Shown in pieces: positions 1 to 5,933 of a DNA stretch of 5,933 nt (position 1 is its first letter; every line of letters begins with the position of its first letter). The position numbers and the translations under genes are program-made. Source of the DNA: a virus; the IMG/VR virus record IMGVR_UViG_3300045988_019087, positions 1-5,933 of that record. One strand, 5' to 3'. Below the pieces are notes generated by a model, which was not told where the DNA came from, made no database searches, and saw only the letters and a list, made by a program, of their open reading frames with translations.

Positions 1-8
1 ACATCCCA

Positions 9-848
9 TTAGTATCCACTACCTCCTCCGCCGTGTTCTTTTCCTTTTTTGCTTTTGTGCGTCTTTGGTGCATCTGGTACGGTTTTTTCCGTCTTTTGCA
101 TTTGTTTGTAGGTTTTGAGTAAATCTTCTGTTAGTTGTTTTGGGCTGCTGTAGCTTGTGCTCATTTGGCTGCCCACGGCTTCTGCGAGTTGATACCATTG
201 TGAGCTGCTTTGCGATTTGCTGTAATAGCTTGTCGGTACGTTTCCGCTCATGGTTGATACGCCCAGGGCGCTTGACGATGGCATTCCCATACTTGCTCCT
301 GTAATGGTCGCTCCTGCTCCGCCTGGTGTGCTTGCTCCTCCGTTAGCAAATGCTAAAATAGGATTTAAGCCTGCTTTTTTCATGTCCTCTACTGCTCTTT
401 GGTAGCTTGTGCTGCTCATGCGCTCTTGGAAGTTTCTGTTTGCCAGTGCTTCGGCGCTGTTGTAATTCATTGCTGCATTTTGCTCGATGTGGTTATAGAT
501 TCCTTGCTGGATTGCTCCTAGCGTGTTGTACCCCATCTGCATTAACATGTTTTGACGGTTTGTTTTGCTCTGGAATGCGTTTTGTCCACCTTGCCAGCCA
601 TAGAAGCGGTCTAGATAGTCCATAATTTGTTTATCGTTTGTACCGCCTTCACTGCTTGAGCTGCTTGCTCCTCCCCCTTGGCTTTGGCTTTGGTTGTATC
701 CTTGGCTTTGGCTTTGGCTTTGCTGCCCGTATAGTCCTTGAAGGCCTTTTCCTGCTAGTGTCATTGCTCCTGTGACTAGTTGCGGGTTTTGCGCTGCCCA
801 TTGTAAACCTTTTGCAGCTATTCCACCGATTGTTGATAAAAAGCTCAT
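9..848 (-). CDS. VP2: DNA pilot / minor capsid protein VP2
   Basis: 279-aa ORF immediately downstream of VP1, the canonical position. Gly/Ser/Gln-rich low-complexity core (QSQSQSQGYNQSQSQGGGASSSSSEGG) and basic C-tail, typical of microvirus pilot proteins. Single possible ATG at 846-848 with an in-frame TAA just upstream. Stop TAA at 9-11 overlaps the VP4 start across the circular junction. Confidence 0.75.
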   Translation of the reverse strand: MSFLSTIGGIAAKGLQWAAQNPQLVTGAMTLAGKGLQGLYGQQSQSQSQGYNQSQSQGGGASSSSSEGGTNDKQIMDYLDRFYGWQGGQNAFQSKTNRQNMLMQMGYNTLGAIQQGIYNHIEQNAAMNYNSAEALANRNFQERMSSTSYQRAVEDMKKAGLNPILAFANGGASTPGGAGATITGASMGMPSSSALGVSTMSGNVPTSYYSKSQSSSQWYQLAEAVGSQMSTSYSSPKQLTEDLLKTYKQMQKTEKTVPDAPKTHKSKKGKEHGGGGSGY

Positions 849-850
849 TT

Positions 851-876
851 AAAAATAGCCCGGATTTCTCCGGGCT
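851..876 (-). terminator. Rho-independent terminator/attenuator between VP1 and VP2
   Basis: On the minus strand: AGCCCGGA-GAAA-UCCGGGCU (8-bp stem 857-864/869-876, GNRA-like loop) followed directly by AUUUUUAA and the VP2 ATG. It sits right after VP1, the gene needing the highest expression, as in the phiX174 post-J/F/G terminators. Confidence 0.55.
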
Positions 877-886
877 TCCTCCTTTC

Positions 887-2578
887 TTACAGTTTGTACA
901 AGCCCGGTACACTGTACAGTGGCATACAACGTGTGGTCTTGTTTGCTACGCGGATTGCTCCAAAGAACTGGTCTTCGTTCTGTACGATGAGTGTTCTTGC
1001 AATTTCTGCTTTGCCTTCTGCCATCCACTCCTGTGACAGCGTTGGTACTGCAGAGTAGTTGTCTGCATAGTGCCAGAAATCTAACGTGCCTGTTGCGTTG
1101 CTTCTCATGAGGCCGCTTACACGGTTCGGCTTCATTCTGTAATCCGCCCAGGCCTCCTGATAGCCGAACGTTTCTTCATCAGTTGTCGTGCCGGTTAACA
1201 TGATTTCTTTTTTCTTTACAGGCTGTTCGCCAAGGTTTGCAAACTGAGGCACGTAATAGTCCAGTCTGTCCTTTCTACTCCAGAATCGCTCAAGTCCCTG
1301 CTGGTATGTTCTGTTGTGACGTACACACATTACACCGATTACAAATCCGTGTTCCTCAAAGCTCTTTGTAAAGGAGCTTTCGTTGATAGGCGTTACTGAC
1401 ATTGCGCCTGTTTCGCCAATTGGCGTATCGTTTGCGTTCTGCTGTCCGCTTGTCTGCACGATTTGGTTCATGTTGACGTGGTAGCGTCCTCCGCCCAGAT
1501 ATTCCGGAATCTGCACCGTTTTGTCGCTGATGGTCACATCCCACAGTGCCTGTACTTGTTCACGGTATCTGCTACCGCCTCGTGCCATTGCTTCATAGTA
1601 CTGCTGGACGGCTACTGCCTTTCGCAAGTCGTTGATAGTTGCTGCAGTTACGCTGCTAAGGTCTGCGCCAAGGTATGCTACTTGGTGGTCTGAGCCAGTT
1701 CCGTCTCCAATGTTTAAGTATGCTGCGCCGTTATTTCCGTCTTGTCCGATTGCATACAGTCTATCTTTGACGTTGCCCGGGTTTGTGCTTCCGTCAAAAA
1801 AGCTGTTTGCATAGATACTTGTTTTGCTTGTGTAATTTTTGTCTGTGTATCCTGTCACCATTGCATTTCCACTCAACGGTAGCGTTACCTCCGGCCCTCG
1901 CTGTGGATAAGGCAAACAGCTTGAGAAGTAGTCGTGAAAACGGTTGACTGGAAGACATCGTCCGCCCTTGCATGCTTCTTGCAGTGTTAATTCTGCAATT
2001 TCTGTAGATGTCTCTTGGTCTTGGTATGTTTCACTTTCATCGCCATCATTTTCTATAGCTGCATTTCCTACGTTTTGGTCTCTGAAAAATTCGTTCCAAA
2101 TTTTTACGTAAGCTCTTATGGGCAGCGAATTGACTTCGAATTTTCCTTTGTTGGCTTTTGCCACTCTTGTTGGCACACCCATGTAGTCCAGAATGCTTTT
2201 TTCGAGTGGAAATGCGGTCTGGCCTGTTGTTTCGATTTTGATAGTCGGTACACTGTATGTCTTTGTCGGCATCCATGGCCTACTATCCACTTCTCCCATG
2301 AACTGTTTGAAGTTTTTCCACAGGATTCGGTTTGGACAATAGAAGTAATAAAAATCGATAAATGCATCATCCATCACCGGATATTTCGGTGTGGTCATGC
2401 GGATGATTGCGCTGGTGTCTACTTGGAATGTGTCTCCCGGCAGCACCTCGTCTACAAAGAATGGAATGAGCTTGCCGCTGTCGAACGTGGTTAGGATTGT
2501 CTGGTCACGATTGAATCGTGTTCGGCTTGTGTGCATCTGTGGCACTTGTAAGAAGTGTCTTTCATTGTTTCTGTTCAT
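887..2578 (-). CDS. VP1: Major capsid protein VP1 (Microviridae, gokushovirus-type)
   Basis: 563-aa ORF, the largest in the genome. N-terminus ...FNRDQTILTTFDSGKLIPFFVDEVLPGDTF... matches the conserved gokushovirus VP1 N-terminal signature (..S...tt.d.G.L.P....EvlPGDtf). ATG at 2576-2578 is preceded by a strong SD (AGGAAGGGAG, about 10 nt upstream). TAA stop at 887-889. Length is typical for gokushovirus VP1 (about 530-570 aa). Confidence 0.92.
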   Translation of the reverse strand: MNRNNERHFLQVPQMHTSRTRFNRDQTILTTFDSGKLIPFFVDEVLPGDTFQVDTSAIIRMTTPKYPVMDDAFIDFYYFYCPNRILWKNFKQFMGEVDSRPWMPTKTYSVPTIKIETTGQTAFPLEKSILDYMGVPTRVAKANKGKFEVNSLPIRAYVKIWNEFFRDQNVGNAAIENDGDESETYQDQETSTEIAELTLQEACKGGRCLPVNRFHDYFSSCLPYPQRGPEVTLPLSGNAMVTGYTDKNYTSKTSIYANSFFDGSTNPGNVKDRLYAIGQDGNNGAAYLNIGDGTGSDHQVAYLGADLSSVTAATINDLRKAVAVQQYYEAMARGGSRYREQVQALWDVTISDKTVQIPEYLGGGRYHVNMNQIVQTSGQQNANDTPIGETGAMSVTPINESSFTKSFEEHGFVIGVMCVRHNRTYQQGLERFWSRKDRLDYYVPQFANLGEQPVKKKEIMLTGTTTDEETFGYQEAWADYRMKPNRVSGLMRSNATGTLDFWHYADNYSAVPTLSQEWMAEGKAEIARTLIVQNEDQFFGAIRVANKTTRCMPLYSVPGLYKL

Positions 2579-2580
2579 TC

Positions 2581-3027
2581 TTACGTTTTACTCCCTTCCT
2601 CTGGTTCTTCTTTCTGTGCTTTGCTCTGTTCTTCCAGCTCTTTGAGCTTCATTGTGTTTGCCTGGGCGGTCGCAATCATCTGGTGATACTCGTGGATGTT
2701 TTGCGGCCATTCGGTTATATCCATTTCTATTCCATCCATAACGCCTTTTTCAAGGCTTTTCAGAAATTCCGGGTCGAAACTTGCCTTTCTGACAATGTTT
2801 TTGATGTCACATTCATCCGAATAGCTTTCAATTTCCTGTTGGATGTCGATTGGTTCGGTTTCCTGTAACACTTCCTGCCCTTTTTCGTCCTTTGTCCAGA
2901 CGTATTGTTTTCGTAGTTTTTCGCCCGGATTCGAAAAGAAGGGCTTTCGCCCTTCCTCGTATCGTTTATTCATGCGGTTTGCCCTCCCATACTTTTTCCT
3001 TGCCGTTAGAAAATTCGCCGGACTCAT
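2581..3027 (-). CDS. Putative internal scaffolding protein (VP3-like); probably starts at the internal ATG 2971-2973
   Basis: 148-aa ORF ending 2 nt before the VP1 ATG, with an acidic C-terminus (ELEEQSKAQKEEPEEGSKT). ATG 3025-3027 has no SD. Internal ATG 2971-2973 (MNKRYEEGRKPFF..., 130 aa) is preceded by GGGAGGG at ideal spacing, and would cut the overlap with the upstream 79-aa ORF to 8 nt. Size and position next to VP1 suggest a VP3 analogue, but there is no sequence signature I can verify. Confidence 0.4.
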   Translation of the reverse strand: MSPANFLTARKKYGRANRMNKRYEEGRKPFFSNPGEKLRKQYVWTKDEKGQEVLQETEPIDIQQEIESYSDECDIKNIVRKASFDPEFLKSLEKGVMDGIEMDITEWPQNIHEYHQMIATAQANTMKLKELEEQSKAQKEEPEEGSKT

Positions 3028-3205
3028 CGTTGAATGCTGCTAACTGGTAGCCGATATAGTCCTGCGGGCTCTGCCCTAAGAAGGTCTTTTCGTCTTTTGC
3101 CATCGTGTTGCACATACGCGCAAACGTTCCGTTGTTTTTGCTTTCGCCCACCCATGCGTAGCATTTTGCTACGTTGTCCCAAATGCCATAATACAGATGT
3201 TCCAT
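2966..3205 (-). CDS. Hypothetical protein (79 aa, acidic)
   Basis: ORF MEHLYYGIWDNVAKCYAWVGESKNNG... with strong SD AGAGAGGAGAAAAAA immediately upstream of ATG 3203-3205. No recognisable family. Confidence 0.45.
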   Translation of the reverse strand: MEHLYYGIWDNVAKCYAWVGESKNNGTFARMCNTMAKDEKTFLGQSPQDYIGYQLAAFNDESGEFSNGKEKVWEGKPHE

Positions 3206-3221
3206 TTTTTTCTCCTCTCTT

Positions 3222-3344
3222 TTACAGACGGATTCCGCCCCGCATGGGTTTCTGGCTGAGGTTGATGGTTTTGGTCTTGCGTGCTGTTACGTTGAATAAT
3301 CGGCGGTCTTTTGCGCCGTTCATCTTCTTACGATGTTGTGCCAT
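3222..3344 (-). CDS. Small basic DNA-binding protein (phiX174 J / gokushovirus ORF8-like)
   Basis: Hand-translated 40-aa ORF MAQHRKKMNGAKDRRLFNVTARKTKTINLSQKPMRGGIRL: 11 Arg/Lys, 1 acidic residue. SD AAGGGAG lies 8 nt upstream of ATG 3342-3344. It overlaps the 3' end of the 75-aa ORF by 17 nt in another frame and ends at TAA 3222-3224, just before the SD of the next ORF. Size and extreme basicity match microvirus DNA-packaging proteins. Confidence 0.5.
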   Translation of the reverse strand: MAQHRKKMNGAKDRRLFNVTARKTKTINLSQKPMRGGIRL

Positions 3345-3555
3345 CGTTGTACTCCCTTCTGATTAGTTCCGTTTCGATTGTTTTTGCAAAACTTTTCATC
3401 TGCCATATTTCATCTAGCAGCTTCTTTGCATCTTGGATGGTGGCTACTTTGCGTAGCATTTTGTATTTTCCATCGATTTCTTTGTATTTTTGAGTTAGCA
3501 CCTCTTCAAGTGCTTCTTTGGTCTGGTCTCTTACATTCCATGTTTTGTGCATCAT
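3328..3555 (-). CDS. Hypothetical protein (75 aa, charged/helical)
   Basis: ORF MMHKTWNVRDQTKEALEEVL... with SD AAAGGAG 6-7 nt upstream of ATG 3553-3555. Packed head-to-tail with its neighbours. No recognisable family. Confidence 0.45.
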   Translation of the reverse strand: MMHKTWNVRDQTKEALEEVLTQKYKEIDGKYKMLRKVATIQDAKKLLDEIWQMKSFAKTIETELIRREYNDGTTS

Positions 3556-3558
3556 GGT

Positions 3559-3681
3559 TTACTCCTTTTCTTTTTCGTTGATGCTATCATGCAGTGCATG
3601 ATAGATTTCGTCAAGCTTTTCCAAAATCTGCATCATGAGACGGATTGCCTGCTTGACGTCCTTGATGGAAATAAGTGCCAT
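3559..3681 (-). CDS. Hypothetical small protein (40 aa, predicted helical)
   Basis: Translated by hand: MALISIKDVKQAIRLMMQILEKLDEIYHALHDSINEKEKE. ATG overlaps the peptidase stop (TAACATG) and is preceded by AAAGGGGGGTG at SD spacing. Its stop lies 3 nt before the next ORF's ATG. The tight operon packing supports a real gene. It is below the 60-aa cutoff of the supplied ORF track. Confidence 0.35.
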   Translation of the reverse strand: MALISIKDVKQAIRLMMQILEKLDEIYHALHDSINEKEKE

Positions 3682-3682
3682 G

Positions 3683-4084
3683 TTACACCCCCTTTCTGTA
3701 TTTGTTGGGTCGTGTATCAACGTGCACCCAACTTGTGTAGACGATGATACCGCATTCGTTTGGAATGATTCTATTCAGTCTGTTAGCAATTTCTTTTGCG
3801 GTCATTCCTTCAATCCGAATGTCTGCTGCCATACCGCGCATATGGTAGCTGTATTTTGCTCCATCGCATTTTTTGTTCCATTCTGGTGTTCTGTATCCGC
3901 TGGTTATGTATACCGGCTTTCCGACTTGGTTTCTGAGGATGTCCAGAATAGCTACAAGGTGCGTATCTATGAAAACTACTTGCGAATCGTCTCTACATGC
4001 GAATTCTTTTACTTTGAAGTGTTTTCCAACGTTCATGTTTTTGTCTGTGTCCATGATGTAGCATTGGATGGCCATGGTGTTCAC
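3683..4084 (-). CDS. Peptidase M15 family (zinc D-Ala-D-Ala carboxypeptidase / L-Ala-D-Glu peptidase-like) cell-wall hydrolase; probable lysis enzyme
   Basis: 133-aa ORF. Carries the M15 zinc-ligand signatures SGYRTPEWN, SYHMRGMAAD (SxHxxGxAxD) and WVHVD. The ORF track starts it at GTG 4084, but the in-frame ATG at 4073-4075 (MAIQ...) has better SD spacing (GAGAGGTGaacaccATG) and is the more likely start. Stop TAA at 3683-3685. Confidence 0.8.
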   Translation of the reverse strand: MNTMAIQCYIMDTDKNMNVGKHFKVKEFACRDDSQVVFIDTHLVAILDILRNQVGKPVYITSGYRTPEWNKKCDGAKYSYHMRGMAADIRIEGMTAKEIANRLNRIIPNECGIIVYTSWVHVDTRPNKYRKGV

Positions 4085-4260
4085 CTCTCTTCATTTCGGA
4101 TTTCACCATTTTTTTGTCGCTTTAAGGTTCCAGCTCCCTTATGAGCATTTCTGGTCATTTGGGTTCGCTGTTGTTCCGGTCTATCCGGTTTCTTTGCCAG
4201 CCGCCTATTTGGCATTCGCTGGACGTTTTGAGGAGCTTCCCGGTCCCCCTTCGTGATTCT

Positions 4261-4289
4261 ATTTTAGCAGGTTTTTTACTGTTTGTCAA
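4261..4289 (-). promoter_or_regulatory. Sigma70-type promoter driving the minus-strand gene block
   Basis: On the minus strand: TTGACA (plus 4284-4289), exactly 17 nt of spacer, TAAAAT (plus 4261-4266). An A-tract upstream (plus 4291-4298 T-run) is UP-element-like. Predicted TSS is about 4254, giving a ~170-nt leader before the peptidase gene. Confidence 0.5.
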
Positions 4290-4381
4290 TGTTTTTTTGG
4301 TTTGAATGGCGCTTTAGCGCCTTGCCGTGCGTAGCGTATGCGGAGCTCGGCCTAATCCATTCATTTTTAGCGCTGTGCGCG

Positions 4382-4556
4382 TTTTCAACACTTTCAACAC
4401 TTTCAACAGGTTTTCAACAAAATATTGCACAATGATTTCCGTCATTTTGACGAACTTTCAACATTTCAACAAATTTTCCACAAGACTTTCAACAGTGTTT
4501 TTCGCTTGTTTTTAACGTTTTATTGTTATAAATTTATATTTTTCAACTTTTCCACA
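4382..4556 (+). repeat. Iteron array: about 10 same-orientation copies of 9-mer YTTTCMACA, including two DnaA-box consensus matches
   Basis: TTTTCAACA 4382-4390; CTTTCAACA 4391-4399 and 4400-4408; TTTTCAACA 4411-4419; CTTTCAACA 4455-4463; TTTCAACA 4464-4471; TTTTCCACA 4474-4482; CTTTCAACA 4486-4494; TTTTCAACT 4540-4548; TTTTCCACA 4548-4556. The two TTTTCCACA copies fit the DnaA box TTWTNCACA exactly; the others differ at one position. Followed by an AT-rich tract at about 4500-4545. Confidence 0.7.
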
Positions 4557-4593
4557 GTCTCTACTACTACGTCTACAACAAGTTAATATAATA

Positions 4594-4637
4594 TACGCGC
4601 GCATGCGTGCGCGCTACGCGCGCGCGTGCGTGCGCAC
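4594..4637. repeat. Alternating purine-pyrimidine (CG/CA/TG) Z-DNA-prone tract: two tandem ~21-nt repeats
   Basis: TACGCGCGCATGCGTGCGCGC (4594-4614) then TACGCGCGCGCGTGCGTGCGCAC (4615-4637). Each unit is fully alternating Pu/Py. Almost pure GC in a genome whose plus strand is otherwise T-rich. Highly self-complementary, so it has cruciform potential. Confidence 0.7.
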
Positions 4638-4640
4638 CGG

Positions 4641-4664
4641 CAGCCCCCTTGCTAGGGGGCGCTG
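4641..4664. repeat. GC-rich hairpin 1 (GCCCCC-ttgcta-GGGGGC, flanking CAG/CTG with a bulge)
   Basis: Perfect 6-bp stem 4643-4648/4655-4660, extendable by 2 bp across a 2-nt bulge. Confidence 0.55.
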
Positions 4665-4670
4665 ACGGAA

Positions 4671-4696
4671 GGGGGTAGGCCGATAGGCCTACCCCC
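4671..4696. repeat. GC-rich hairpin 2: perfect 11-bp stem GGGGGTAGGCC-gata-GGCCTACCCCC
   Basis: Stem 4671-4681/4686-4696 with all 11 pairs Watson-Crick, GATA tetraloop. Followed on the plus strand by TATTTTG. Confidence 0.65.
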
Positions 4697-4703
4697 TATT
4701 TTG

Positions 4704-4722
4704 CTGATAACTGATAACTGAT
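4704..4722 (+). repeat. Tandem heptamer CTGATAA x2.7
   Basis: CTGATAA CTGATAA CTGAT lies between hairpins 2 and 3. The GATA motif also forms the loop of hairpin 2. Confidence 0.45.
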
Positions 4723-4745
4723 TTACATGGAGTCTGAAGTCTATC

Positions 4746-4772
4746 ATCATCCCCCCTTCTAGGGGGGATGAT
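4746..4772. repeat. GC-rich hairpin 3: perfect 11-bp stem ATCATCCCCCC-ttcta-GGGGGGATGAT
   Basis: Stem 4746-4756/4762-4772, loop 4757-4761. The flanks CTATCAT / ATAGAG extend it imperfectly. Confidence 0.65.
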
Positions 4773-4780
4773 AGAGGGGT

Positions 4781-4813
4781 TAGCCAAGTTCTTACTTGAT
4801 AGGTACTTGGCTA
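4781..4813. repeat. Hairpin 4: 9-bp stem TAGCCAAGT ... ACTTGGCTA with a 15-nt loop
   Basis: Stem 4781-4789/4805-4813. Lies 11 nt from the VP4 stop codon. Confidence 0.5.
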
Positions 4814-4823
4814 GGTGACACCG

Positions 4824-5843
4824 TTAGAGTGTCCCTCTCTTCTTCATTTGCTTTTTGATGACTCTTTCTTTTGTTTCACATTGCTCTGCAAAGTCTGCGT
4901 TTTCATACTTTAGCCGATTTTCTGCTATGGCTGCCGCCTGTCTGTTTTGCTTAATTCTCCACAACCTTTGTGGGTTTTCAGCTTCCATCATTTTTTCATA
5001 ATAACGTGGAATTTGTGCGTGTTTTCCGTTTGTGCATTGGATGTATCCTTGTCTCCATATTTCTGTTTTGTGTTCTTGGTAATAGTGGTCTCCAAGTCCC
5101 GGTTTTAGGCTCATACATGCAAAAGGCTTTGTTTGCCCTAATTCATAGTATACGTTTGCTTTCTGGCCGTCAATTTCGTACATCTTTTTTGTGACGTACC
5201 CTGCAACATATCTATATGTCTCTGGTACTGCTTGTGCTATCTGTATTTGACCCATGCCCCAGATGTCTGTTAGCCATTTACTTGTGAAATATCCGTTGTG
5301 TTGTATCTTGTATAGGTGCTCTAGGTCTGTTGGCTTCCATCCGTATAGTATCATATGATAATGTGGTCTAGCTGTTTGCTCTCCGTATTCTCCTGCTACA
5401 AAATAGCGTAATTTGCCCCTGTAAGCCTTTCTAAGACGTTTTAGGAATTTTTGAACGTCAGTATACAGTAATGTTTGTACGCTTTTAGGCGCTTTCTCTC
5501 CTGGCTTCCAGACGTATTGTACTTTTCTCATGATTTCGCCTGTGTTTATAATCATCCCAGGCACGTGTTCATCATCATACGTTAGAGTGATAAACCACAC
5601 TTCTTCTTTCGGATAGTCTCGTGCTTCTAATTCTATACGTGTTGTCCAGTCCTCTCTCTGTCTTATTCTGCATCCGATGCATTGCCCGCATGGTATTAGC
5701 ATTACATCTTTTCTATACATCAAATCTTCATATTTTAGCTGTTTTCCGCAGACTTGAGAAAAGCGGGCAAGTGAATACACCCGCCCGCTTATTTCTTTGT
5801 TGTCAGGGTTGTACAGCCTTATCAATGGCTTGTAACATCCCAT
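4824..5843 (-). CDS. VP4: Replication initiation protein VP4 (rolling-circle Rep, HUH endonuclease)
   Basis: 339-aa ORF. HUH motif inside ARPHYHMILYG. Catalytic tyrosine motif YVAGYVTKK (YxxxY..K) as in phiX174 gpA and gokushovirus VP4. Cys-rich N-terminal region (CGQCIGC). ATG at 5841-5843 (equivalent to window positions 7-9) preceded by GGAGGAGG, which is itself formed by VP2 Gly codons. TAA stop at 4824-4826. Confidence 0.9.
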   Translation of the reverse strand: MGCYKPLIRLYNPDNKEISGRVYSLARFSQVCGKQLKYEDLMYRKDVMLIPCGQCIGCRIRQREDWTTRIELEARDYPKEEVWFITLTYDDEHVPGMIINTGEIMRKVQYVWKPGEKAPKSVQTLLYTDVQKFLKRLRKAYRGKLRYFVAGEYGEQTARPHYHMILYGWKPTDLEHLYKIQHNGYFTSKWLTDIWGMGQIQIAQAVPETYRYVAGYVTKKMYEIDGQKANVYYELGQTKPFACMSLKPGLGDHYYQEHKTEIWRQGYIQCTNGKHAQIPRYYEKMMEAENPQRLWRIKQNRQAAAIAENRLKYENADFAEQCETKERVIKKQMKKRGTL

Positions 5844-5933
5844 TAGTATCCACTACCTCCTCCGCCGTGTTCTTTTCCTTTTTTGCTTTTGTGCGTCTTT
5901 GGTGCATCTGGTACGGTTTTTTCCGTCTTTTGC
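5835..5933. repeat. Terminal redundancy: exact 99-bp copy of window positions 1-99 (circular genome wrap)
   Basis: Bases 5835-5933 are identical to 1-99 on direct comparison. The duplicated part contains the VP4 start and the 3' end of VP2. Genome unit is about 5834 bp. Confidence 0.9.

Follow-up and report, generated by a model that had tools for sequence, protein, structure and literature searches.

A candidate viral-strand origin and a strand-specific hairpin module opposite the genes of a gokushovirus

Background

The viral-strand origin of bacteriophage phiX174 is a 30-nucleotide (nt) site, cut by gpA at CAACTTG^ATATTAATAACACTATAGACCAC, whose core is unstructured and lies within gene A. 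In the record of phage G4, the primer and the complementary strand start at a CTG located 3 nt past a GC-rich hairpin, and two more hairpins are present upstream, one of them with CCGCCCC/GGGGCGG arms. The stretch of DNA analyzed here, IMG/VR virus record IMGVR_UViG_3300045988_019087, positions 1 to 5,933 (hereafter the window, 5,933 nt), may contain counterparts of both. It is a complete gokushovirus-type microvirus genome with all genes on the - strand. Approximately 740 nt of non-coding DNA separate the peptidase gene from VP4, which encodes a rolling-circle initiator, and a cluster of hairpins, numbered 1 to 4 in the order of the + strand, is located at the VP4 end of this region. An earlier note on this DNA had proposed the whole cluster as the best candidate for the signal for conversion of single-stranded DNA (ssDNA) to double-stranded DNA (dsDNA).

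The double-strand origins of pT181/pMV158-type plasmids and the nonanucleotide hairpin of circular Rep-encoding single-stranded (CRESS) DNA viruses resemble hairpin 4 in having an invariant nick-site loop on a covarying stem beside a rep gene, although their loop sequences and Rep families differ. Plasmid single-strand origins have a fixed orientation and a flexible position, occur as cassette-like classes, limit host range and are not strictly essential (PMC5703833). Among the microviruses, reekeekee- and roodoodoo-microviruses have conserved hairpins with identical loops, compensatory stem changes and uncertified function in the interval that separates capsid from Rep genes (Olo Ndela et al. 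2023, PMC9865509). These hairpins belong to other clades and are likened to the present hairpins by description; the same paper draws no link to a gpA-type motif or to polarity. In the literature searched, there is no described gokushovirus origin or complementary-strand signal, and there are no described negative-sense microviruses.

Results and discussion

A likely viral-strand origin at hairpin 4

Hairpin 4 and the box CTAGGTGACACC on its 3' side (together 4781-4822) are likely to constitute the viral-strand (nick) origin and not an ssDNA-to-dsDNA signal, because the invariant loop of the hairpin matches the phiX174 gpA site and is followed by a conserved 3' box. The loop holds ACTTGATA, the 8-nt phiX174 cleavage core (caACTTG^ATAttaataacactatagaccac, checked in J02482, in which the origin is annotated at 4306). 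In the window, TACTTGATA at 4793-4801 compares with caacttgata of phiX174, and the cleavage core ACTTG^ATA is present. By analogy with ACTTG^ATA, VP4 is predicted to nick between G4798 and A4799 (TACTTG^AT). The box sits 10-11 nt past the loop, and the distance from the loop through the end of the box is approximately 30 nt, an extent like that of the phiX174 origin, which also has a conserved 3' part (CTA..GAC.C). The resemblance of the box itself to ACTATAGACCAC of phiX174 is only loose. The initiators are homologous two-tyrosine HUH proteins, and the VP4 sequence includes both the HUH motif PHYHMIL and a two-tyrosine motif, YVAGY, with the gpA-like tyrosine pair. Unlike the phiX174 core, that of the window is found in the loop of a 12-base-pair (bp) covarying hairpin, in non-coding DNA and, in this clade, opposite the genes.

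Three sets of sequences were available for comparison, comprising 11 GenBank relatives, 80 IMG/VR loci fetched by VP4 alone (89-95% protein identity) and further loci fetched by DNA patterns; individual loci are cited below by L number. Hairpin 4 is present in every relative compared, and its loop is invariant in all of the approximately 75 VP4-selected relatives. A 58-nt consensus of the hairpin matches 89 phage records from sources as varied as tunicates, bees, blackflies, birds, rodents and a hot spring, and the pattern TACTTGAT-N6-18-TAGGTGACAC is found in at least 119 IMG/VR contigs and in about 17 genuine hairpins in bacterial assemblies. A covariance model (R1), built from 7 sequences, detects the hairpin in 100 of 100 diverse contigs and scores 53.9 bits on the + strand of the window against 8.8 bits on the - strand. 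It also finds the hairpin in the unselected Chlamydia phage Chp2, as TAGCGTATAACAG-tc-TACTTGAT-CTGTTATACGCTA-GGTGATAGC, on the coding strand of the intergenic region that follows VP3, where the box reads AGGTGATAGC. Over the diverse gokushoviruses recovered as BLAST, pattern or model matches, the box is invariant or nearly so. In total, hairpin 4 and its box are known in more than 200 gokushovirus genomes, Chp2 included.

The stem, by contrast with the loop, is conserved in pairing and not in sequence. Among 76 distinct sequences, 91% of cells are paired and 11 of the 12 pairs have changed on both sides; no measure is equalled by any of 500 shuffles, and controls in which the register was slid collapse. 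The 5' arm is known in 72 distinct versions. On the motif strand, the non-Watson-Crick pairs are predominantly G.T (8, versus one A.C). The figures for paired cells and double-sided changes derive from a covariance-model alignment, since counting stems in a fixed register failed on bulged variants. The copy in the window is a slightly damaged version of the 12-bp stem and 8-nt loop of its relatives, and its 5' arm has lost one base.

Hairpins of a second kind are present in phiMH2K (L093, 3296-3335) and SpV4 (L094, 512-544). These have 10-bp stems, are located on the coding strand and carry TACTTGTT in their loops; they are candidates for the origins of these two phages and for a second origin-loop variant. 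The occurrence of ACTTGATA at SpV4 1641 is inside a coding sequence and is not part of a hairpin, and is regarded as a chance match.

In two bacterial assemblies, the origin motif TACTTGAT..CTAGGTGACACC is present as a spacer of clustered regularly interspaced short palindromic repeats (CRISPR), at L247 3535-3562 (Natronospirillum operosum, NZ_SRMF01000001) and at L243 3301-3329. These sites had been considered as host-phage junctions at TACTTGAT, but they are spacers between repeats. Because the motif sits in such arrays, some hosts target the gokushovirus origin, and the arrays provide host links. No related prophage was found among 185,579 species genomes. Nor do contig ends give evidence for physical ends at the motif, as it occurs within 150 nt of a contig end in just 13 of 119 contigs; a 55-nt duplication ending at TACTTG in L149, which might have been such an end, is the terminal redundancy of a circular contig.

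Orientation of the origin motif and the packaged strand

The origin motif is on the coding strand in approximately 85 genomes, and in Chp2 and the typical 4.1-4.8-kb gokushoviruses it is located between VP3 and VP4. In the window clade, the genes all lie on one strand and the motif on the other. The same inversion is seen in L174 and, with the usual gene order kept, in L115/L136/L211, L143 and L150/L151. In a rough VP1 tree, the inverted-motif lineages fall at four or more positions.

Base composition tracks the motif rather than the genes. The window + strand is 37.4% T and 17.7% A. The third codon positions of VP1 in L100, which has the same orientation, are A8 C14 G25 T53, whereas those of L143, which has the opposite orientation and 70% VP1 identity to L100, are A25 C54 G16 T4; when L143 is read on the motif strand, it has the same G+T-rich, A-poor composition as L100. 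At 4-fold sites of VP1, the coding-frame skew (A-T)/(A+T) ranges from +0.39 to +0.95 in the 11 opposite-orientation clusters, which occupy ranks 1-11 of 38, and from -0.91 to +0.36 in the 27 same-orientation clusters. On the motif strand, T exceeds A at these sites in 34 of the 38 clusters. A T-rich skew fits deamination, which suggests that the motif strand is single-stranded for some time; a bias linked to transcription would instead track the coding strand.

Because the origin motif lies opposite all genes, the window + strand would be the one that is displaced and packaged, and the clade would be antisense. On these sequence grounds, there is moderate confidence in taking the motif strand as the one displaced and packaged, and the window clade as one that packages negative-sense DNA. 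This reverses the assignment of the earlier note, in which the gene (-) strand is treated as the ssDNA and the + strand as antisense: the origin motif, the T-rich skew and the folding bias produced by G.T pairs in 70 of 70 relatives (see below) all mark the + strand. One of the opposite-orientation genomes, the 4.5-kb L115, also has a tandem 55-nt duplication approximately 230 nt 5' of the origin hairpin, each copy of which forms a GGGTACCC ctt GGGTACCC hairpin.

A two-hairpin module on the origin strand

The hairpin cluster is evidently composite, because hairpin 4 is universal while hairpins 1-3 vary among relatives. In 83 regions compared, five states can be distinguished: hairpins 1-3 as in the window (type A, 7 regions), the same architecture with other inner stems (type B, 13), a related module across the alternating-GC tract that precedes hairpin 1 (type C, 4), an unrelated hairpin (type D, 28) and no module (31). 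The module proper comprises hairpins 1 and 2, or HP-I and HP-II. HP-I consists of an outer 5-bp stem, an A, an inner stem GCCCC(C)/GGGG(G)C and a linker; AA comes next, and then the G-run, two bases past HP-I, with which HP-II begins.

The pattern CAGCCCC-N4-9-GGGGCG-N3-9-AAGGGG, which covers HP-I and the start of HP-II, identifies 92 IMG/VR loci. The outer stem of HP-I lies outside the pattern, and among 68 unique hits at least four of its five pairs are Watson-Crick in 43; the stem is perfect in 23, compared to 2.6 expected by shuffling, and 7 distinct perfect stems are represented. This covariation was counted by script, and the MAFFT alignment A3 was dropped for HP-I, as types A and B are in different registers in it. 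For HP-II, the same alignment (types A and B) has 94.6% of cells paired and 4 pairs that change on both sides. Among the HP-II sequences of microviral contigs, 26 variants form a perfect stem of 7-15 bp, and their arms are of 17 different kinds. The lineages that contain the module are the window clade, a sister clade with 80% identical VP4, three lineages in which VP4 is 35-47% identical and one group in which it is 26-34% identical.

The position of the module is flexible, and its strand is not. Module and origin share a strand in all 34 cases where an origin was found (29 unique genomes plus 5). In the 29 unique genomes the module is 108-154 nt upstream of the origin; in L311, L322 and L331 it is approximately 75 nt upstream, and in L294 and L295 it is downstream. 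The T-rich strand carries the module in 57 of 58 microviral contigs; the genes are on the other strand in about 50 and on the same one in 8. A strand relation that ignores gene direction speaks against a terminator or an mRNA element. Hairpins 1-2 thus behave as a strand-specific two-hairpin module, with the appearance that a complementary-strand origin should have. In this respect the earlier proposal of an ssDNA-to-dsDNA signal is supported for hairpins 1-2; hairpin 4, with its match to a viral-strand origin, is likely to be a separate element.

Perfect hairpins in general are enriched approximately 9-fold in the interval 25-150 nt 5' of the origin hairpin (125 genomes). Hairpin 3, a GC-clamp hairpin directly 5' of the origin hairpin, is restricted to the 7 type A genomes, but non-homologous G5/C5 hairpins abut the origin hairpin in the same way elsewhere (L143, L097, L149, L153 and L103).

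Like the plasmid single-strand origins ssoA, ssoU, ssoT and ssoW, as well as ssoL, which are structured, non-coding and active in one orientation on the displaced strand, HP-I/HP-II combines strand fidelity with mobility and cassette behaviour, although it is much shorter and more GC-clamped. The ssoA hallmarks RSB and CS-6 (TAGCGT/A) are absent; the only TAGCGT in the window is at 4334-4339, and because this lies outside the hairpins the element is not a member of the ssoA class. Several GC-rich hairpins, arms of the CCGCCCC/GGGGCGG type and an unpaired CTG shortly 3' of a hairpin are points of resemblance to the G4 complementary-strand origin. There is no sequence homology with G4, however, the CTG is 6 nt past the hairpin, compared to 3 nt in G4, and a triplet by itself is weak evidence.

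HP-I followed by AAGGGG also occurs in approximately 12 contigs of 66-70% GC that encode a large terminase and an amidase and represent dsDNA phages (L270, L277, L293, for example at 6036-6300, L303, L305, L321, L324, L334, L352 and L356). In these the outer stem covaries, alternating GC is often nearby and the motif tends toward contig ends. HP-II is not a simple hairpin in these contigs.

Structure and stability of the cluster

All four hairpins described in the earlier note are present, with some correction of their coordinates. The two stems that were said to be flawless and 11 bp long are perfect, but each has 12 bp (4670-4697 and 4746-4772). The two shorter hairpins, placed at 4641-4664 and 4781-4813, also exist, although hairpin 1 actually spans 4637-4668 and includes a mismatch and a bulge. 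The cluster of four is therefore real; what had been overlooked is a fifth and larger hairpin directly upstream (4596-4635), formed by an alternating-GC tract. This tract is found in 80 of 83 clade members and in the distant lineages L322 and L295. Its interruptions are mostly T on the + strand, and it consequently folds well on that strand only (-22.9 kcal/mol, versus -16.9 on the - strand). In duplex DNA it is potentially Z-DNA- or cruciform-forming.

The cluster is far beyond chance. The whole genome contains 10 perfect hairpins with stems of at least 7 bp, compared to 1.2 in shuffles, and four of them are within 4597-4772; the 12-bp stems of hairpins 2 and 3 are the only ones in the genome. 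The most stable 120-nt window of the genome begins at 4591 (-52 kcal/mol; genome mean -10.8, standard deviation 5.8). A comparable density of hairpins elsewhere, which the note had named as grounds for abandoning its proposal, is not found, and the covariation that it called for is seen in hairpin 4, HP-I and HP-II. Folded as DNA, as the note had also suggested, a 246-nt stretch reaches -75.1 kcal/mol on the + strand (z = -11.7, with 0 of 200 shuffles as stable) and -65.3 kcal/mol on the - strand (z = -8.6). In all 70 unique relatives the region from the block on its left border to hairpin 4 is more stable on the + strand, by a mean of -6.0 kcal/mol, and this bias arises mainly from the G.T pairs of the alternating-GC hairpin. 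No Rfam covariance model has a match in 4300-4830 at E <= 1, and none matches the module-bearing loci.

Behind hairpin 2 there is a T-rich spacer (4698-4733) that is unpaired in folds of both strands. It begins with the T-run ATTTTG, which the note had correctly pointed out, and the first of its CTGs is 6 nt past hairpin 2. The spacer is the homologue of a clade-wide block, TTGATAGACTGAATAGACTGATACATGGAG, which reads CTGATAACTGATAACTGATTTACATGGAG in the window. Behind the origin box, a GACAC...GTGTC hairpin like the one in the window is present in 19 of 118 distinct tails, belonging to at least 8 lineages.

A possible mechanism and its alternatives

The chances are about even that this is a replication-control region that acts on the + strand and contains both a viral-strand origin and a strand-specific single-strand-origin module. 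In such a model, VP4, which is encoded next door, would recognise the box CTAGGTGACACC and cut the loop at TACTTG^AT (4798/4799) in the manner of gpA. The nick would prime rolling-circle synthesis, and VP4 would later re-cut and ligate the displaced strand; the displaced and packaged ssDNA would be the window + strand. Once this strand is single-stranded, hairpins 1-2 (4637-4697), the alternating-GC hairpin and hairpin 3 may fold and stay free of single-strand-binding protein. Flanking the unstructured T-rich CTG spacer, they could together serve as a complementary-strand origin for host priming. The priming enzyme might be primase, by analogy with G4, or else RNA polymerase or PriA. A primase-type mechanism is preferred because the layout resembles the hairpin-then-CTG arrangement of G4, but priming at the CTG spacer is a guess based on that analogy.

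Several observations weigh against this model. The loop of hairpin 4 is not universal, given that the phiMH2K and SpV4 hairpins carry TACTTGTT instead. With respect to polarity, only about 4-5 independent lineages make up the opposite-orientation clusters, and some same-orientation lineages are A-rich on the coding strand, up to +0.36; for these reasons composition alone is not proof of polarity. Hairpins 1-4 of the window are energetically symmetric between the strands, only the alternating-GC hairpin being asymmetric, and that asymmetry could be mutational instead of selected. Of 83 close relatives, 63 lack hairpins 1-3, and L043, L088 and L019 do not have even the alternating-GC hairpin. 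The module is therefore dispensable or replaceable. The CTG that follows HP-II in the window and types A and B is not retained in other lineages that carry the module. Finally, the occurrence of HP-I in GC-rich dsDNA phage contigs is not what would be expected of a single-strand origin.

Other explanations for the hairpins have been considered. The coding strand is the one packaged in textbook Microviridae, and primosome sites have been suggested at conserved intergenic hairpins of other microviruses (PMC9865509), so that all four hairpins might form a complementary-strand origin on a packaged gene-sense (-) strand, as in phiX174 and G4. Being perfect palindromes, hairpins 1-4 fold nearly equally well on the - strand. 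However, hairpin 4 has an asymmetric loop and 3' box, which score on the + strand and match a viral-strand origin, that of phiX174; synonymous-site skew tracks the motif strand, the + strand folds better in 70 of 70 relatives, and the module tracks the T-rich, origin-bearing strand and not the gene strand. A - strand origin is thus very improbable. A role as RNA is less remote, but still unlikely. The hairpins are directly past the VP4 stop codon and could be 3' stabilisers or non-canonical terminators of the VP4 mRNA; hairpin 2 with ATTTTG scores as a + strand terminator and could be that or the body of a small RNA; a T-rich tail follows HP-II in most variants; and in some relatives TTTTGTC or TTTATTC is found behind hairpin 4 in the gene sense. 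Against this, no gene-sense U-run follows any hairpin in the window, which had already led the earlier note, rightly it seems, to favour signals of the ssDNA cycle over a VP4 terminator. An invariant loop and a box are not terminator features, no convincing + strand promoter and no gene are present upstream of hairpin 2 on the + strand, and no Rfam family matches. In - sense RNA the G.T pairs become C.A mismatches, and a module that is anticoding in about 50 genomes and coding in 8 does not track transcription.

The hairpins could instead function in the duplex replicative form, as cruciform or Z-forming palindromes that handle supercoiling or aid extrusion of the origin hairpin, or as protein-binding sites. 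The 40-bp alternating GC/GT tract is a classic Z-former, perfect palindromes are clustered less than 200 bp from the nick site, and rolling-circle initiators at pT181-type origins often need an extruded origin hairpin. In a duplex device, however, orientation should be free, yet the module and the origin share a strand in 34 of 34 cases while the iteron block of the same region flips; GC-clamped stems are poor extruders, and a + strand folding bias, if not purely mutational, would make no sense for a duplex element. This explanation is an improbable one. There is a slim chance that the elements serve, as strand-specific signals, the packaging or condensation of the encapsidated ssDNA and not priming. 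Such signals should leave the same signature, an element near the origin that tracks the packaged strand, but packaging in phiX174 is coupled to rolling-circle synthesis and uses no separate packaging site, and the module is absent from most close relatives even though their capsid proteins are nearly identical. It is equally doubtful that the hairpins are functionless or selfish palindromic insertions, accumulating by aberrant termination or recombination in the last-replicated region near the nick. The extreme plasticity of the region would fit, with five module states among genomes whose VP4 proteins are 89-95% identical, the module to the left or right of the alternating-GC tract, and none in some genomes. 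However, pairing survives complete turnover of the stems (17 HP-II arms and 7 HP-I outer stems), lineages with 26-95% VP4 identity keep the HP-I core, and the strand relation does not change. The single-strand-origin interpretation accounts for the fixed strand relation and the stem turnover better than any of these rivals.

Implications

The balance tips slightly in favour of a more general proposal, in which an origin stem-loop common to gokushoviruses (a stem, a TACTTG^AT loop, a stem and CTAGGTGACACC) is homologous to the phiX174 origin, and its orientation, and not that of the genes, sets the packaged strand. In that proposal, the origin was inverted in at least four lineages, including the abundant 5.5-6.1-kb human and pig gut clade of the window, whose members would be negative-sense ssDNA viruses, and HP-I/HP-II is a portable single-strand-origin cassette of distant microviruses. 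Gokushoviruses are among the commonest ssDNA phages of gut and oceans. If their origin is defined by sequence, the nick site and the packaged strand become predictable from a contig alone. If some package the antisense strand, the family-level description "positive-sense ssDNA" does not hold for a major clade of the gut, and the reading of strand-specific virome libraries, analyses of mutational spectra and skew, and annotation conventions are all altered. The incoming strand would then be a transcription template, which affects models of early infection. The portable module might also mark host priming machinery or host range, as the classes of single-strand origin do for plasmids.

Genome organisation and other features

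The closest relatives of the window share 77-83% DNA identity with it; they come from human, pig and monkey faeces and are gokushoviruses of 5.5-6.1 kb. Across the relatives compared, the non-coding region is a mosaic. In + strand order, TTTC(A/C)ACA iterons are followed by a block ending in CTACAACAAGTTA, a variable (TA)n run and the alternating-GC hairpin, and then by optional GC-rich hairpin modules, the block TTGATAGACTGAATAGACTGATACATGGAG, hairpin 4 and the VP4 stop codon. The features of the window are listed in Table 1.

Table 1. Coding and non-coding features of the window
Feature	Positions	Strand	Remarks
VP2-like protein	9-848	-	
F-type capsid VP1	887-2578	-	
Chp2-like scaffold	2581-3027	-	
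Peptidase M15	3683-4084	-	
Sigma-70-type promoter	4261-4289	-	TTGACA, 17-nt spacer, TG-TAAAAT; 11/12 matches
Iterons TTTC(A/C)ACA	4383-4556	+	Nine copies on the same strand; AT-rich stretch 4505-4545
Left-border conserved block GTCTCTACTACTACGTCTACAACAAGTTAA and variable (TA)n run	4557-4595	+	Bounds the hairpin region
Alternating-GC hairpin	4596-4635	+	Alternating purine-pyrimidine GC/GT (CG/TG) tract, 40 nt; 18-bp arms with G.T pairs
Hairpin 1 (HP-I)	4637-4668	+	CCGGCAGCCCCC TTGCTA GGGGGCGCTGACGG; G.A mismatch, C bulge
Hairpin 2 (HP-II)	4670-4697	+	AGGGGGTAGGCC gata GGCCTACCCCCT; perfect 12-bp stem, loop GATA
Unstructured spacer	4698-4733	+	T-run ATTTTG, CTGATAA repeats with three CTG, then TTTACATGGAGT
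Hairpin 3	4746-4772 (core); 4740-4775 (with bulge)	+	ATCATCCCCCCT tct AGGGGGGATGAT; perfect 12-bp stem, 3-nt loop
Hairpin 4	4781-4813	+	Arms 4781-4789 and 4805-4813; 9-bp outer stem; loop core TACTTGAT at 4793-4800
3' recognition box (putative) CTAGGTGACACC	4811-4822	+	Ends 1 nt short of the VP4 stop codon
Small hairpin GACAC cgttaga GTGTC	4817-4833	+	Reuses the origin box; overlaps the VP4 stop codon
VP4	4824-5843	-	Rolling-circle initiator; Pfam PF23343 REP_ORF2-G2P, E = 5.9e-17; stop codon 4824-4826

The iteron motif has 10 matches in the window (9 of them within 4383-4556), compared to 0.5 expected, and iterons are kept in all relatives. In L041 and L043 the orientation of this block with respect to the origin hairpin is reversed. 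The iterons were considered as DnaA boxes and rejected, as just two copies match the relaxed consensus TTWTNCACA.

The segment at 4557-4586, which reads TAACTTGTTGTAGACGTAGTAGTAGAG on the - strand, is the most conserved non-coding block of the clade. On the gene strand it holds ACTTGTTGTA, which is identical to part of the candidate origin loop of phiMH2K, CTACTTGTTGTAAG, and overlaps the iteron core. The coding-strand sequence TAACTTGTTGTAG (4586-4574), the complement of the CTACAACAAGTTA block, was examined as a second origin; it resembles the phiMH2K loop but is outside any hairpin loop, and is not treated here as an origin. It overlaps the iteron core CAACA and recurs inside the iterons. 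A dif/XerCD attachment site at 4581-4608 was likewise rejected: the resemblance to a XerD-like arm does not hold up, because the AT run at 4585-4595 varies freely among relatives, and no related prophage was found in the species genomes mentioned above.

The sigma-70-type promoter is predicted to drive the gene block downstream of the non-coding region, and equivalent perfect promoters are present in relatives. This near-consensus promoter, together with strong Shine-Dalgarno sites, suggests a host with classical promoters and Shine-Dalgarno-dependent translation, and not a member of the Bacteroidota. On the + strand there are open reading frames without a Pfam match at 3034-3366 (110 amino acids) and 3635-4144 (169 amino acids), one of which is antisense to the peptidase gene. 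These are probably artefacts, because the A-poor + strand has few stop codons. On the - strand, inside the 5' part of VP4, the segment at 5708-5793 has a weak match to the Rfam Termite-leu RNA (28.4 bits, versus a gathering threshold of 51; E = 0.004) that is probably due to chance. Further perfect hairpins are located in the gap between VP1 and VP2 at 857-876 (AGCCCGGA tttc TCCGGGCT) and at 3584-3604 (CTATCATGC agt GCATGATAG).

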